NCBI GenBank assembly: GCA_965652295.1
Contig: CBFGTS010000017.1
Coordinates: forward strand, 1-64,000
Direction: 5' to 3'
Length of the DNA stretch: 64,000 nucleotides
DNA from: an uncultured Haloferula sp.
GTDB lineage: Bacteria > Verrucomicrobiota > Verrucomicrobiia > Verrucomicrobiales > Akkermansiaceae
Shown: positions 23,584-58,723 of the stretch, piece by piece
Numbering within the stretch: position 1 is the stretch's first letter
Layout of the letters: every line of letters starts with the position of its first letter
The notes under the pieces: generated by a model
Seen by the model: the letters and a program-made list of their open reading frames with translations, nothing else
Database searches by the model: none
What the model was told of the DNA's origin: nothing
Translations under genes and position numbers: made by a program

Positions 23584-23630
23584 GCCGTGGCGAAACATCC
23601 GGCCGGCCAGCTCCGTTTTCTCGGCAACCC

Positions 23631-24035
23631 ATGGCTGGAAAACACGTTTTCATCACCGAGTCCGAAGCGCTGAAGGAAGACTTCAAGGGCCGCACGAACT
23701 ACTGGATGTGCCGTCCCGAGATCGCCGATAGCAAGGACCTGCAAGTCTGCCGCGCCGTGCTTCCCGCGGGGGAGGGGCATCCGTTTCACACCCACCCGGA
23801 ACTGGAGGAAGTCATCTACGTGCTGGAGGGGGAGATCGAGCAGTGGGTGGAAAAGGAGCACCGCCGACTCGGTCCGGGACAAGCGGCCGTGATTCCCGCC
23901 GGAGTCGTGCATGCCACTTTCAATCCCTCGGGTGAGGATGCCGTCATCCTGGCCATCCTTTCGCCCGGCTCCAGCGAAGGCCCCTTCGCCGTCGATGTCA
24001 GCGGGGAAGAACCGTGGCGCTCGCTGCGTGGCTGA
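23631..24035 (+). CDS. Cupin domain protein
   Basis: HPFHTHPELEEVIYVLEG ... IPAGVVHATFN. Confidence 0.92.
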   Translation: MAGKHVFITESEALKEDFKGRTNYWMCRPEIADSKDLQVCRAVLPAGEGHPFHTHPELEEVIYVLEGEIEQWVEKEHRRLGPGQAAVIPAGVVHATFNPSGEDAVILAILSPGSSEGPFAVDVSGEEPWRSLRG

Positions 24036-24096
24036 AAGTCGAGTCCGTCCGCATCCCCCCCGGAATCATTCCCCTGATGGGGAGCGGTGGGGCGGG

Positions 24097-24289
24097 CGAG
24101 CCACGGCCGGCGAGAAGAAAAACCCATGAAACTCCTCACCGGCCGTGGTGCCTAGTCTGTAAGTTGTGGCGGTGACCACGACCGGAGAGGGAAAAAACCC
24201 ATAAATCCCTCTCCGATCGTGTGTTACCGAGGCAGTCCGAAGGTCAAACCCATAAAGACGCTTCATTCTGTCGCGGAACCATCCACAAC
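24097..24289 (-). ncRNA. Candidate sigma54-dependent small RNA with three hairpins sharing the loop UU(U/C)AUGGGUUU
   Basis: Three stem-loops (24101-24148, 24170-24229, ~24231-24272) with plus-strand loops AAACCCATGAAA/AAACCCATAAA; 5' GUUGUGG (24289-24283) pairs with 24169-24163; consensus sigma54 promoter immediately upstream; no credible ORF. Confidence 0.7.
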
Positions 24290-24297
24290 ACCAGATA

Positions 24298-24314
24298 AGC
24301 AAGGGCGGTGCCAA
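24298..24314 (-). promoter_or_regulatory. Consensus sigma54 (-24/-12) promoter
   Basis: Minus strand TTGGCAC-CGCCC-TTGCT; predicted TSS about 24287-24289. Confidence 0.85.
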
Positions 24315-24441
24315 GTTCGTCCGAACTGGACAGGACGCGGCATTTTCCGAGGAACCGCCTGCATTTCAATCGGTCCGGCCTGGACGCATGAAACCCGGCC
24401 GCGGGATTGACGCCCCGGAACCGCTCGGCAAGCTTCGGGGC

Positions 24442-24786
24442 ATGCCGCGATTTGTCGCCAACGCCGACTACGAGGACAAGGACTCCCGCCCGCTGGCCCT
24501 GACCGCCGGGGACGAAGTGACCGTGGGCCCCGAGGATCGTACCTGGCCCGGCTGGGTGTGGGCAACCGATGACCGGGAATGCCGCGGCTATGTGCCGGAG
24601 CAGATCCTCGAACCGCTCGGCGAGGGCCGTTTCGCCGCAATGGAGGATTTCGATCCCACCGTGCTCACCGTGAAGCGCGGAGACGAGCTGGAATCGCTCC
24701 GCCAGATCCACGGCTGGCACTGGTGCCGCAGCGACGGTGGCACCGAAGGTTGGGTGGCCGGCTACCTTCTGCGCCCGGCGGGCTGA
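24442..24786 (+). CDS. Tandem SH3-domain protein
   Basis: Two SH3-like repeats: L.LTAGDEV...WPGWVW...GYVPEQ and LTVKRGDEL...GWHWC...GWV; start 24442 (alt 24388). Confidence 0.8.
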   Translation: MPRFVANADYEDKDSRPLALTAGDEVTVGPEDRTWPGWVWATDDRECRGYVPEQILEPLGEGRFAAMEDFDPTVLTVKRGDELESLRQIHGWHWCRSDGGTEGWVAGYLLRPAG

Positions 24787-24840
24787 GCCGTCCGCGCATG
24801 GATCTTGAGGCCGGTCGGGCTTCATGCTAGGGAGGCCACC

Positions 24841-26706
24841 GTGCCTCCCGTCCTTATCCTCCGAGCCGGCCGGTGTGGCGTGGTCGTTGCCGCCATGGCC
24901 TTGATCGCGTGCAGTTCACCGCAGCGCAAGGCACTGGAGGAATTGCGGTCGCGCGGGGTCGAAGCCACAGGTCCGCGGTTGCTCGAAACCGTCCGCGAAG
25001 GGAACACCGGCGTGCTCCGCCTGCTCATCACCGCCGGCACCTTCACCGGCCAGCGGGACGAGCGCGGTTACACGCCGCTCCACATCGCCATCGAGCGCGG
25101 GGCGGTGGATGCAGCTTGGCTGCTCATCGAAGGTGGTGCCGACCTCGATGCGCTTGCACCAGACAAGGTTTCCCCGCTTTCCATGGCCGTCGTCCGCGGT
25201 GAAGCCGCCATCGCCGACAAGCTGCTCACCGCCGGTGCGAAGCCCGAGGGCCGCACTCCGGACGGGGAGGAATTGCTGCCGTGGGCCATCCGCCACGGCC
25301 GCTGGGTCGTCGTCCGCCGCCTGATGGAAAACGGGGCCGACCCCCACCTCGCGGACCAGCACGACAACCCGCTCCTGCACATCGCGATCGCCGCGGGCAA
25401 GCGTGCCCAGGTCCAGCAGCTCATCCAGCTCGGTGCCGACTGCGGCGCGGTCGACAGTGAGGGCGAGAGCGCCATCGTGCTGGCGATCCGCCGCGGCTGG
25501 AAAGACCTCGTCCCGGCGCTCGCCAAGGAGGGTGCCGATCCGAACCGGCCGGACCGCGAGAGCGTCGCGCCGCTCACCCGGGCCTACCGCGCCGGCGACA
25601 TGGAGCTTTTTGAAATGCTGCGTGCCTGCGGCGCGCGCCCCGGCCCCGGTGACGGCCCCAAGCGTCTCGCGGAGGCCTACGAGGCGCGGGATGACAAACT
25701 GGCCAGAATGCTGGTTCGCCTCGGAATCCGGCCTCCGCCCTCGCTCATCCGCCGCGCTGCGCTTGAGGACGAAGTGCGTTTCCTGCACCTCTTCCTCTCC
25801 TACGCGGAAGTTCCACCCGGCCTTTTGCGGGAATGCGCCGTGCCCGGTCGAGCCCATCTCGCCTCCCTGCTCCTCGCCCACGGCGCTAAGGTGAACGAGT
25901 CCGGCACCCCTTTCACCGCCACCGCTTTCACCACCGCCTTGGAAAGTGGTTGTGATGCCCTCGCCGTTCGCCTGCTTGATGCCGGCGCGCATCCCGACGC
26001 CCCGACCCGGTGCGGCGTCCCGCCCCTCCATCTCGCCCTTGCCCGTGGCCAGGCCGCCGCCGTCCGCCGCCTCATCAAGCACGGCGCGGATGTCAAATCG
26101 CCCCTGCCTTCCCCGGTCCCGCCGGCCTTCAGCCGGATCATCCGTGGCGACAACCTCCGCTGGCTGCTACGTCACGACAGCCGGATCGCGCCCCTGATGT
26201 TGGCCGTCGACAGCGGCTCCGTGGAAACCGCCAGCGCCCTGCTGAATGCCGGCGCGGAGAAATCCGTCTGGACCCGCCGCAGCCGCATCTGGCCGATCAA
26301 CCTCGCCGCCGGCCATGGTGACGTCCCGATGATGCGGCTGCTTCTCGGCAAGGAACCCTACCGCGAGCAGCGGCGCGTGCGGATCGACCTTTCCGAGCAG
26401 CGGCTGAAGGTGTTCAGCATGGACGGCTCCGAGATCTTCGAAACCCGGGTCTCGACGGGCCGCCGCGGCTACCCCACGCGCACCGGAACTTTCGCCATCA
26501 CCAACCGCTACCGGTATTGGCACTCGACGATCTATCATTCCCCGATGCCGTTTTTCCAGCGGCTGAGCTGCGGCGACTTCGGAATCCACCAAGGCTCTGT
26601 TCCCGGCTATCCCGCCTCGCACGGCTGCATCCGCGTCCCCGCCGGAAACGCAGGCCGCCTCTTCGGCATCACCGACCTCGGCGACCGGGTCGACATCGTT
26701 CCGTGA
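24841..26706 (+). CDS. Ankyrin-repeat lipoprotein with C-terminal L,D-transpeptidase (YkuD) domain
   Basis: Lipobox LIA-C; multiple TPLH/PL..A ankyrin repeats; IDLSEQRL, VSTG, GIHQG, SHGCIR; GGGAGG precedes GTG 24841. Confidence 0.88.
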   Translation: MPPVLILRAGRCGVVVAAMALIACSSPQRKALEELRSRGVEATGPRLLETVREGNTGVLRLLITAGTFTGQRDERGYTPLHIAIERGAVDAAWLLIEGGADLDALAPDKVSPLSMAVVRGEAAIADKLLTAGAKPEGRTPDGEELLPWAIRHGRWVVVRRLMENGADPHLADQHDNPLLHIAIAAGKRAQVQQLIQLGADCGAVDSEGESAIVLAIRRGWKDLVPALAKEGADPNRPDRESVAPLTRAYRAGDMELFEMLRACGARPGPGDGPKRLAEAYEARDDKLARMLVRLGIRPPPSLIRRAALEDEVRFLHLFLSYAEVPPGLLRECAVPGRAHLASLLLAHGAKVNESGTPFTATAFTTALESGCDALAVRLLDAGAHPDAPTRCGVPPLHLALARGQAAAVRRLIKHGADVKSPLPSPVPPAFSRIIRGDNLRWLLRHDSRIAPLMLAVDSGSVETASALLNAGAEKSVWTRRSRIWPINLAAGHGDVPMMRLLLGKEPYREQRRVRIDLSEQRLKVFSMDGSEIFETRVSTGRRGYPTRTGTFAITNRYRYWHSTIYHSPMPFFQRLSCGDFGIHQGSVPGYPASHGCIRVPAGNAGRLFGITDLGDRVDIVP

Positions 26707-56156: not shown

Positions 56157-57413
56157 ATGGTCGAGACGATGCCCGAAATATCCATCGAAAGGCTCGGCGG
56201 CGATCTACGGGAACTCTCGGAGATCGGACGCGCGGAGGATGGCGGCGTGTACCGCATGGCTTTCACCGAGGCCGACATGCGCGGCAAGGCATGGCTGGAG
56301 CAGCGCATGCAGGACGCGGGCCTGGAAACCTCGCGCGATGGCGCGTGCAACGTGATCGGCCGGCTCGCCGGAAAAAACGCGGAGGCCCCCGCGCTGGTGA
56401 TCGGCTCCCACATCGACACGGTGCCGTGCGCCGGGATCCTCGATGGCACCCTGGGCGTGCTGACCGGGCTCGAATGCCTGCGCGCGGTGAAGGAAAGCGG
56501 CCGCGTGCCGGAGCGCGACATCGAGCTGATCGCCTTCTCCGATGAGGAAGGCCGCTTCGGCGGCATGCTCGGCTCGCAGGCATTCGCCGGGCAGGTCACG
56601 CCGGATGTCATCCACACCGCGGTCGATCCCGCGGGCGAAAAAATGGCCGATGCGATGGCCGCGCACGGCCTCGATCCCTGGCTCGCGTTGCAGGCGCGGC
56701 GCGATCCGCAGACGATCGCCGCCTACCTGGAGCTGCACATCGAGCAGGGCCCGGTGCTTTCCGGAAACGACGAGCAGATCGGCGTGGTCGAGGCGATCAC
56801 CGGGCTCTTCAAGTGGACCGTGACGCTTTCCGGCGAGCCGAACCACGCCGGCACCACGCCCATGCCGATGCGGCGCGACGCGTTCATGGGCGTGGCCGAT
56901 TTCGCCCACGAGATCCCGCGCCTGCTCGACGAGAACGGCTCCGAACGCTCGCGGGCGACGATCGGCCGCGTGGATCTCACGCCCGGCTCCGCCAACACGG
57001 TGCCGGGCGAGGCCCGGTTCACCCTCGACGTGCGCGATACGGACGAGACGGTGATGCACGAACTCGCCGACTCCGCACGCAAGGCGCTCAACGCGATCGC
57101 CCGACGCCGCGGGCTGCGTTTCAACTACGAGGTCGATAGCTGGATCAATCCGGTCGATTGCGATGCCGCGCTTTCCGACATGGTTGAAGCCGCGGCGAAA
57201 GACGCGGGCACCCGTTTCCGCCGCATGATCTCGGGTGCCGCCCACGATGCGCAGATCGTCGCCTCGCTCTGTCCCGTAGGCATGATTTTCGTCCCGTCGC
57301 TGGAGGGAAAATCCCACTCGCCCGCGGAATGGACCGCCTGGGACGACATCGAGGCCGGGGCCCGCGTCATGCTCGGCACGATCGAACGCTTCGCCTTCCC
57401 ATCCGCTTCCTGA
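56157..57413 (+). CDS. Zn-dependent N-carbamoyl-L-amino-acid amidohydrolase / allantoate amidohydrolase family (M20)
   Basis: GSHIDTV, GILDG.LGV, EEGRF, YLELHIEQGP, NHAGTTPM, SGAAHDA, SHSPAE; start 56157 or 56169. Confidence 0.93.
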   Translation: MVETMPEISIERLGGDLRELSEIGRAEDGGVYRMAFTEADMRGKAWLEQRMQDAGLETSRDGACNVIGRLAGKNAEAPALVIGSHIDTVPCAGILDGTLGVLTGLECLRAVKESGRVPERDIELIAFSDEEGRFGGMLGSQAFAGQVTPDVIHTAVDPAGEKMADAMAAHGLDPWLALQARRDPQTIAAYLELHIEQGPVLSGNDEQIGVVEAITGLFKWTVTLSGEPNHAGTTPMPMRRDAFMGVADFAHEIPRLLDENGSERSRATIGRVDLTPGSANTVPGEARFTLDVRDTDETVMHELADSARKALNAIARRRGLRFNYEVDSWINPVDCDAALSDMVEAAAKDAGTRFRRMISGAAHDAQIVASLCPVGMIFVPSLEGKSHSPAEWTAWDDIEAGARVMLGTIERFAFPSAS

Positions 57414-58419: not shown

Positions 58420-58494
58420 TGGCAACCCGTAGGGGAATCGAACCCCTATTGCCAGAATGAAAATCTGGAGTCCTAACCGTTAGACGAACGGGTC
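58420..58494 (-). tRNA. tRNA-Glu (anticodon TTC)
   Basis: GACCCGTTCGTCTAACGGTTAGGACTCCAGATTTTCATTCTGGCAATAGGGGTTCGATTCCCCTACGGGTTGCCA; cloverleaf, anticodon arm CCAGA-TT TTC AT-TCTGG, GTTCGA T-loop, encoded CCA. Confidence 0.97.
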
Positions 58495-58723
58495 TCACTT
58501 CGCGAAGCTTGCCGGAGCAGGCTTCCTTCGCCCACCGGGGTGGGCTGGGCCGGAAAGCTAGTCAGAGCCCTCCGACTGACAAGCACATTTTTGGGAAAAA
58601 AATTCCGCATCCATTCATGGGTTGGATGAAACGTTCCCTGAGTGGTGGATGAATGGCGGCTTGCCAGCGGGGACATCGTCCCTACCCTGCGCGCCCTGTC
58701 CGACAAGCACTTACGGATTGCCC

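Follow-up and report, generated by a model that had tools for sequence, protein, structure and literature searches.

The 64,000-nt stretch of DNA analysed here, called the window below, covers positions 1 to 64,000 of contig CBFGTS010000017.1 in the genome assembly of an uncultured Haloferula sp. (GCA_965652295.1). Between a cupin gene (23631–24035) and a small SH3-domain protein gene, both on the plus strand, it has a gap into which a sigma-54-type promoter points on the minus strand. Is there an RNA gene in this gap and, if so, what might it regulate? The first-pass annotation, made from the letters alone, had proposed an unannotated, sigma-54-driven small RNA of no described family, in which three copies of one loop motif are complementary to start-codon regions. 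We find that the gap almost certainly carries a real, conserved RNA gene. The gene appears to encode a small regulatory RNA, not described before, of Haloferula-like Verrucomicrobia; the kind to which it belongs is known, namely the sigma-54-controlled small RNA with repeated loops. As to function, we favour, with confidence that is evenly poised, a sigma-54-induced, multi-seed base-pairing RNA that would cover AAACCC-A(UG) start regions.

A sigma-54-type promoter and three hairpins with one loop motif

The elements of the locus are listed below in the direction of the RNA (R2 is a one-hairpin model of the loop module, discussed further on).

24298–24314, minus strand: sigma-54-type promoter TTGGCAC-CGCCC-TTGCT (−24 GG, −12 GC), exact consensus
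24283–24289, minus strand: predicted 5′ end (~24287–24289) and 5′ arm of the closing helix; the conserved 5′ block GUGGAUGGUUCCG comes next
24227–24276, minus strand: hairpin 1, loop CUUUAUGGGUUUGA (motif 24256–24246), R2 score 38.9 bits
24177–24222, minus strand: hairpin 2, stem of 15–17 bp, loop AUUUAUGGGUUUUUU (motif 24205–24195), R2 score 57.3 bits
24163–24169, minus strand: 3′ arm of the closing helix, CCACAAC, from the fold and the model alignment
24149–24162, minus strand: single-stranded linker UUACAGACUAGGC between the closing helix and hairpin 3
24101–24148, minus strand: hairpin 3, stem of 17 bp with two G-U pairs, loop GUUUCAUGGGUUUUUC (motif 24130–24120), R2 score 65.4 bits
24061–24084, minus strand: probable 3′ end, a short hairpin CUCCCC-AUCA-GGGG with a degenerate tail, from the alignment with relatives’ terminators

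The minus-strand word TTYATGGGTTT occurs in three exact copies within 137 nt (24256–24246, 24205–24195 and 24130–24120), each in the loop of a hairpin with a different stem, and the three loops all read UU(U/C)AUGGGUUU. Together with one site with a single mismatch at 58614, the window has four sites at up to one mismatch against 0.63 expected, and none of 100 shuffles reaches four. The minimum-energy fold of the 211-nt stretch (−99.6 kcal/mol against −72.2 ± 4.6 in 200 shuffles; z = −6.0) contains the long third hairpin and the closing helix, GUUGUGG (24289–24283) with CCACAAC (24169–24163), which encloses hairpins 1 and 2, just as the first-pass annotation had drawn them.

The promoter that it had named is likewise exact and in place: TGGCAC-N5-TTGCT lies at 24313–24298 and is the sole exact TGGCAC-N5-TTGCW in the window. 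The match alone is not rare: when up to one mismatch is tolerated, three such sites are found in the window where 1.26 are expected, a count that 12 of 100 shuffles attain.

From the spacing to the promoter and the onset of conservation, the RNA would start at ~24287–24289. Its 3′ end, placed at ~24063, is uncertain, because the window’s 3′ hairpin (24084–24071) is without a U-tract and a terminator scan of the window found none. This hairpin aligns with the canonical hairpin-plus-U-tract terminators of two relatives (L024 and L096), the U-tract having been lost, and canonical intrinsic terminators stand at the end of the RNA in relatives. The predicted product is, thus, an RNA of ~225 nt, transcribed from ~24288 to ~24063 on the minus strand, presumably as an independent gene.

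A conserved and covarying RNA family

A BLAST search in the family yielded two same-genus homologues at 75–77% identity; two further weak matches, in genera g5 and g12, were discarded as chance matches without a motif hairpin. A covariance model (R1) built from the window and the two homologues scores 133.9 bits on the minus strand and 26.1 bits on the plus strand, where the G-U pairs of hairpins 2 and 3 would read as A-C mismatches. R1 matches all 15 sampled genomes of the genus, several of them more than once, and 24 of 151 genomes of the family; weaker matches occur in two more genera (6/15 and 2/9 genomes), and none in 17 other genera of the family. A pattern scan in which each prokaryotic species was represented by one genome returned 37 loci; R1 confirmed 23 of them, all in Verrucomicrobiota and including Haloferula rosea, H. 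sargassicola, H. luteola, H. chungangensis and Luteolibacter records. The other 14 loci, from other phyla, gave no R1 match at the site of the pattern; one of them (L086) has a 16-bit match elsewhere in the locus.

In its own genome (4.37 Mb, 98% complete), the RNA stretch is single-copy: one BLAST match is found and R1 matches this locus only, which rules out the multicopy repetitive extragenic palindrome or miniature inverted-repeat transposable element that the first-pass annotation had named as a finding against it. Nor does the RNA belong to a described family. With Rfam 15 at gathering thresholds, the window gives only a tRNA (58423–58494) and the loci of eight relatives give nothing; at E up to 10, the region 23900–24500 gives four matches of 12.6–17.5 bits, far under their thresholds and none credible. 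A literature search, in part loosely targeted, brought up no published small RNA with these features in Verrucomicrobia, Akkermansia, Haloferula or Luteolibacter.

Covariation was judged by counts of changes on both sides of a base pair. In 36 model-aligned sequences, 91.5% of the cells pair, against 40–52% when the partners are slid by one to three columns. Both sides change in 34 of the 42 base pairs, compared with 20.9 ± 2.1 in shuffles, none of 500 of which reaches 34, in this R1-fitted alignment. By helix, and in the same fitted alignment, both-side changes are seen in three of four pairs of the closing helix (helix 1; 84% paired), in all 18 pairs of hairpin 1 (helix 3) and in 11 of 17 pairs of hairpin 2 (helix 4; 95% paired). 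Because this alignment was fitted to the model, we realigned 23 of the 34 full-length sequences with MAFFT and applied RNAalifold to the result. This gave 33 pairs, 24 of them with compensatory change, covering both hairpins; the closing helix was not predicted in this run.

The closing helix, hairpins 1 and 2, and the 5′ block G(C/U)GGAUGGU(U)CCG make up the core of the family. Three hairpins had been proposed as the architecture; these are present in the window, but the third is confined to a subgroup (the window, L024, L096 and L098), the family at large having two. The linker UUACAGACUAGGC is almost invariant in the two aligned relatives that also have the third hairpin, and may serve as a further functional site or as a point of cleavage.

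These results bear directly on the alternative that there is no functional RNA here, the arrangement being due to chance, to a repeat element, or to tiny reading frames opened by the loops. Each loop in the window does have an AUG that opens a short frame. The AUGs are, however, missing from most homologues, and indels between homologues ignore the reading frame; single copy, strong covariation and genus-wide conservation refute the chance and repeat versions. We regard the probability of this alternative as next to negligible.

Promoter conservation, and sigma-54 genes in the genome

In 27 of 34 distinct full-length homologues, a promoter element TGG[CT][AG][CT]-N5-NNGC[ATC] lies 22–34 nt upstream of the model match. 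The seven copies without one at the expected place include a paralogue group of four (L045, L047, L050 and L075) and a degenerate element (L028); in L035, the model start is misplaced after an inserted hairpin, and in L048, the promoter element stands at another distance. The four paralogues are two-hairpin RNAs with a common upstream sequence, CGATTTTCC(C)GGTG, in place of a sigma-54 promoter, which suggests a second RNA copy under different control.

The genome of the window encodes RpoN (Sigma54_DBD at 187.5 bits) and three NtrC-type activators of REC-AAA-HTH organisation. That the RNA is driven by sigma-54 is, judging from its promoter, very probable; since the promoter is of this type, we propose that the RNA would be made only when an NtrC-type enhancer-binding response regulator is active. 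When the upstream regions of 10 relatives were aligned, the recurring elements were only an A-tract ~30–45 nt upstream and the SH3 gene. No 8-mer stood out as common to the RNA promoter and nine other sigma-54-like promoters of the genome, and an enhancer that the RNA promoter would share with those of the PII, rpoN-like, clpX-like or other genes was not found.

Two observations may be added on promoters. Immediately upstream of the sigma-54 promoter there is a sigma-70-like match, TTGAAA-16-GAAAAT (9/12), at 24342–24369 of the window (minus strand). Elsewhere in the genome, sigma-54-like promoters on contigs C19, C11, C7, C10 and C4 precede genes for PII (GlnB/K)-, RpoN- and ClpX-like proteins and, further, for a YciE-like and a secreted protein, all named from a reading of their N-termini only; these genes form a small candidate sigma-54 regulon.

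The loop as a module

Within the loops, UGGGUUU alone is invariant, and every modelled hairpin leaves it unpaired. Just before it stand two variable bases, which are UA or CA in the window, CU in most of the genus and UC in some hairpin 1 loops. Loop conservation in relatives, therefore, holds for UGGGUUU and not for the AUG: most homologues’ loops read CUUGGGUUU or UCUGGGUUU. We extracted 59 hairpins by the presence of UGGGUU in the loop and by folding; their stems are unrelated, while the flanking U’s, which were not selected for, are at least 90% conserved. On this comparison, the loop is the functional unit of the RNA.

Hairpins found with R2 occur in 15 of 15 genomes of genus g1, 15 of 15 of g20, 7 of 9 of g14, the single genome of g13 and one of two of g8, that is, in 5 of 20 genera of the family; R2 found none in the 15 other genera or in 114 genomes from seven other families of the order. 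The motif hairpin occurs on at least four RNA architectures. Among them are a short sigma-54-promoted type with 5′ GCCGUGUUGCUUAA, one hairpin and a U-tract (L037, L042 and L044), and a short type without a sigma-54 promoter (L038, L040, L041 and L043).

At L037 (G033:C315), two short forms (GCCGUGUUGCUU, then the hairpin) stand in tandem ~150 nt apart, a sigma-54 promoter being seen before the first only. In the genome of the window, there are two more long hairpins, with the loops UUUUUUGGGUUUUU and UUCUUGGGUUA, at G000:C11:129865–129925 (plus strand) and G000:C5:171632–171685 (minus strand), both in gaps flanked by co-directional genes; they may represent additional small RNAs, or untranslated-region elements, built on this loop module.

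Identical loops on unrelated stems, with one to three hairpins per RNA, also fit the design of a titrating RNA. The U/G-rich loops could bind an RRM-domain protein or another factor, and the RNA would then act by titration or delivery, as CsrB/RsmZ do with CsrA. RRM proteins often prefer U/G-rich single strands, and the genome encodes four proteins with this domain (RRM_1). Titration in the strict CsrB/RsmZ manner, which the first-pass annotation had also entertained, is not supported: the loops read GGG rather than GGA, and CsrA (PF02599) was not found in the 98% complete genome. Hfq and ProQ were not found in it either, and no candidate protein is tied to the RNA by gene neighbourhood. As a sponge for an RRM-type protein, this is the main rival to the base-pairing RNA that we favour, and one that we consider doubtful.

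Complementarity of the loop to start regions

Throughout, gene starts were assigned heuristically, as the first ATG of open reading frames chosen by GC content at third codon positions (GC3). In the genome of the window, 4-mers resembling a Shine-Dalgarno (SD) site precede 354 of 2946 such starts, compared with 456 in a control window, so there is no SD signal. The context of these starts favours C at −1 (0.54) and at −2 (0.42), with A favoured at +4 (0.44). AAACCC, which complements the loop core, is the top enriched hexamer at −6 to −1 (15 of 2164 starts, 22.6-fold), every other permutation of A3C3 being seen there three times or fewer, and it is also frequent just after the ATG (21 and 18 genes at +3 and +4). 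Among the 35 words of A4C3 composition, AAAACCC (63) and AAACCCA (58) are the commonest in start regions, most others occurring 3–25 times. In the window itself, AACCCATG occurs six times against 1.36 expected, including at 23626 (the cupin start) and at 57413, which bears out the earlier remark that several genes here begin with ..CCCATG.

All seven exact AAACCCAT(G/A)AA sites outside the RNA sit at start regions, six of them on an ATG that opens 341–1300 codons and one 9 nt before the ATG of a 2368-codon gene. Five of the seven genes have recognisable products: a GH43 hydrolase, an AMP-binding enzyme, a sodium:solute symporter, an arabinofuranosidase that carries a carbohydrate-binding module, and a giant alginate-lyase/laminin-G protein; the other two are unknowns. 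Signal-peptide-like N-termini, by a crude rule, follow 57 of 133 AAACCC-bearing start regions, compared with 20% elsewhere. Duplexes of −16 kcal/mol or lower, predicted with ViennaRNA duplexfold, number 61 in start regions, 17 in coding controls and 24 in antisense controls; ten shuffled loop sets gave 8–51.

In five relatives with CUU loops (G025, G057, G076, G119 and G143), AAACCCATGAA has 84 matches, compared with none for the reversed control, and 26 of 30 examined sites open reading frames of at least 80 codons, mostly with signal-peptide-like N-termini. AAACCC-AUG-AA has 225 matches in 16 genomes of the genus, against two for the reversed control. For AAACCCAAGAA, the five relatives have 34 matches, of which 20 are the loops of 10 RNA genes and 14 lie elsewhere; of 12 of these 14 that were examined, six are clearly 0–71 nt from a start, three are doubtful and three are not near one.

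The orientation of the word matters for the sponge. If the RNA titrated a translational repressor, the loop-sense motif would be expected in start regions, yet it is rarer there (15/550) than its complement AAACCCA on the sense strand (62/550); this depletion argues against a CsrA-like logic and leaves other protein partners compatible.

Family-wide, and also in genera that lack the RNA, AAACCCATGAA is more frequent than the reversed word. Its densities, given here as sums per genus from a family-wide table of matches, are as follows.

Genus g1: motif hairpin found; AAACCCATGAA at 2.55 per Mb
Genus g20: motif hairpin found; AAACCCATGAA at 1.21 per Mb
Genus g14: motif hairpin found; AAACCCATGAA at 1.41 per Mb
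Genus g5: motif hairpin not found (0/16 genomes); AAACCCATGAA at 2.66 per Mb
Genus g12: motif hairpin not found; AAACCCATGAA at 1.24 per Mb
Genus g15: motif hairpin not found; AAACCCATGAA at 1.12 per Mb
Genus g11: motif hairpin not found; AAACCCATGAA at 0.86 per Mb
Genus g10: motif hairpin not found; AAACCCATGAA at 0.74 per Mb
Genus g3: motif hairpin not found; AAACCCATGAA at 0.67 per Mb

Co-evolution of the start-region word with the RNA was not found: the hairpin-less g5 has the same density as g1. We also rejected mimicry of the 16S rRNA tail, the 16S rRNA of relatives ending in the canonical CCUCCUUUCU; the sole UGGGUU in it lies near position 1080, and the assembly of the window is without a 16S rRNA gene.

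Proposed mode of action

We propose that the RNA is transcribed from the sigma-54 promoter in the gap as an independent small-RNA gene, and that its long, stable hairpins would each present one single-stranded motif, UU(U/C)(A/U)UGGGUUU. As a repeated seed, this motif would pair in vivo with AAACCCA(UG)AA, a word that stands directly on many start codons in this SD-less lineage, especially in genes for exported proteins and polysaccharide use. Pairing may block binding of the 30S subunit or otherwise alter the translation or stability of a whole class of mRNAs. Since UGGGUUU, the complement of AAACCCA, is the only invariant part of the loop, the RNA would read the context before the start codon and its first A, rather than the codon itself. 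The anti-start-codon loop, as first proposed, is thus upheld in its complementarity to an over-represented start-region word and not in its anti-AUG part.

Several points weigh against this proposal. Most homologues have CUU, so that the part of the loop facing the U and G of the AUG is unconserved, and such loops leave a 7-nt core and a U-U mismatch for pairing. The duplex enrichment is only ~2–3-fold over controls, with a large and generic set of predicted targets, and the heuristic gene starts qualify every count made at them. In the CUU-loop relatives, the 14 sites of AAACCCAAGAA that lie outside the RNA genes are about as many as the 12 of its reversed control. The density of AAACCCATGAA does not follow the RNA, so this word belongs to the start context of the whole lineage, and the RNA could do no more than make use of it. 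A pairing helper such as Hfq or ProQ is also missing from what was found in the genome. Lastly, the base of hairpin 2 (CCACGG/CCGUGG) is kept in sequence, beyond pairing alone, which hints at recognition by a protein or nuclease and is a point in favour of the sponge.

A wider form of the base-pairing proposal can be put forward as a tentative possibility only: with its two or three identical loops, the RNA would switch the translation of dozens of exported and polysaccharide-degrading proteins together via AAACCC-AUG, its loop module having been reused on unrelated scaffolds, with different promoters, in five genera. Riboregulation without SD sites, Hfq, ProQ and CsrA is poorly understood, and the RNA family makes it accessible to study in a concrete case: the type of promoter is clear, the invariant seed measures 7 nt, a candidate target word is defined, and several carriers are in culture (the named Haloferula and Luteolibacter strains). 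The AAACCC-AUG-AA start context across the family is a by-product that stands on its own, and should its partner be a protein after all, the RNA would lead to a hitherto unknown regulator that binds RNA.

Gene neighbourhood

The two genes that flank the RNA in the window are the following.

24442–24786, plus strand: divergent neighbour, gene for a small SH3-domain protein (Pfam SH3_2)
23631–24035, plus strand: convergent neighbour, the cupin gene, with a start that reads CAACCCATG; not conserved in relatives

In 8 of 10 close relatives, a gene whose product begins with M(A/P)(K/R)FVANADY points away from the RNA promoter; in the window, this conserved N-terminus (MPRFVANADY...) begins at the ATG at 24442, which is, therefore, probably the start of the SH3 gene, rather than that at 24388. 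This arrangement could point to a local action of the RNA on the SH3 gene, by promoter interference or by pairing with its leader, where AAACCC follows the upstream ATG at 24388. Both promoters must fit in a 128-nt intergenic region, and in G119 a gene with an SH3-like N-terminus (MPRFVKN) has an exact AAACCCAAGAA in its first codons (L114). In most members of the genus, however, the RNA lies elsewhere, between a HAD hydrolase gene and RlaP and without the SH3 gene; moreover, paralogous RNA copies stand at other places and the loop motif is common to RNAs of other genera. We judge a local role to be unlikely.

In two CUU-loop relatives inspected by open reading frames and Pfam (L030 and L034), the RNA follows a gene for a NagD-like HAD hydrolase, the last codons of which are overlapped by the sigma-54 promoter, and precedes a gene for RlaP, a nucleotidyltransferase of an RNA repair pathway. 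HAD-like upstream sequence recurs in most CUU-loop copies. Enterobacteria have sigma-54-controlled RNA-repair operons that contain Y RNAs, and a sigma-54 promoter with RlaP downstream, in the recurrent order HAD, RNA, RlaP, might accordingly suggest a Y-RNA-like or RNA-repair-linked RNA. Against it, the genome of the window has the RNA, but neither RlaP nor a TROVE/Ro protein was found there, on which ground we rejected this reading as very improbable; in addition, no Y RNA model is among credible Rfam matches at E up to 10, and a terminator separates the RNA from RlaP in relatives.

The neighbours of the RNA vary among relatives, and none at the window locus is an activator gene. To judge from these comparisons, the RNA is a stand-alone unit with its own promoter and, in relatives, its own terminator. 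Further downstream of the SH3 gene, at 24805–26706 (plus strand), the window encodes a 633-aa protein in which many ankyrin repeats are joined to a C-terminal YkuD L,D-transpeptidase domain, an unusual pairing.

Comparison with known systems

By analogy, the closest known system in design is NrsZ of Pseudomonas aeruginosa. The NrsZ gene adjoins ntrC, whereas the Haloferula RNA is not beside an activator gene. NrsZ is RpoN-dependent through an NtrC-type activator and has three repeated stem-loops with one conserved loop motif, a single module being sufficient for function; the loop serves as a seed and forms a kissing complex with an mRNA leader (PMC4253122). The two RNAs are alike in a sigma-54-type promoter and in repeated hairpins with one loop motif, and they differ in the motif itself (ACAGGCAG in NrsZ, UGGGUUU in the Haloferula RNA). 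They share no sequence or model similarity, and no Rfam family credibly matches the Haloferula RNA. NrsZ activates one known target upstream of an SD site; the Haloferula motif, in contrast, matches the start context of many genes in a lineage that makes no use of SD sites.

Like CsrB, RsmZ and RsmY, the RNA repeats one motif on hairpin loops whose stems are unrelated, and its hairpins vary in number; unlike theirs, its loops are without the defining GGA, no gene for CsrA/RsmA was found in its genome, and Rfam gives no match to them. CrcZ of Pseudomonas is a sigma-54-dependent sponge for Hfq/Crc, with A-rich single-stranded motifs that are bound by Hfq. The sigma-54 control of a repeated-motif RNA is alike; the loops of the Haloferula RNA are, however, G/U-rich, and Hfq was not found.

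Pxr of Myxococcus is a sigma-54-driven, multi-loop small RNA with C-rich loops, and the alphaproteobacterial cuckoo/CcsR RNAs carry anti-SD loops. There is no homology between these RNAs and that of Haloferula. With Pxr, and not with the cuckoo RNAs, it shares the sigma-54 promoter; with both, it shares several hairpins, one motif and a presumed action at translation starts. The C-rich loops of Pxr and cuckoo/CcsR match G-rich ribosome-binding sites, whereas the G/U-rich loops of the Haloferula RNA match an A/C-rich word that abuts the start codon. If the base-pairing proposal is right, the RNA would be a counterpart of the anti-SD small RNAs, one that reads the start-codon context itself.

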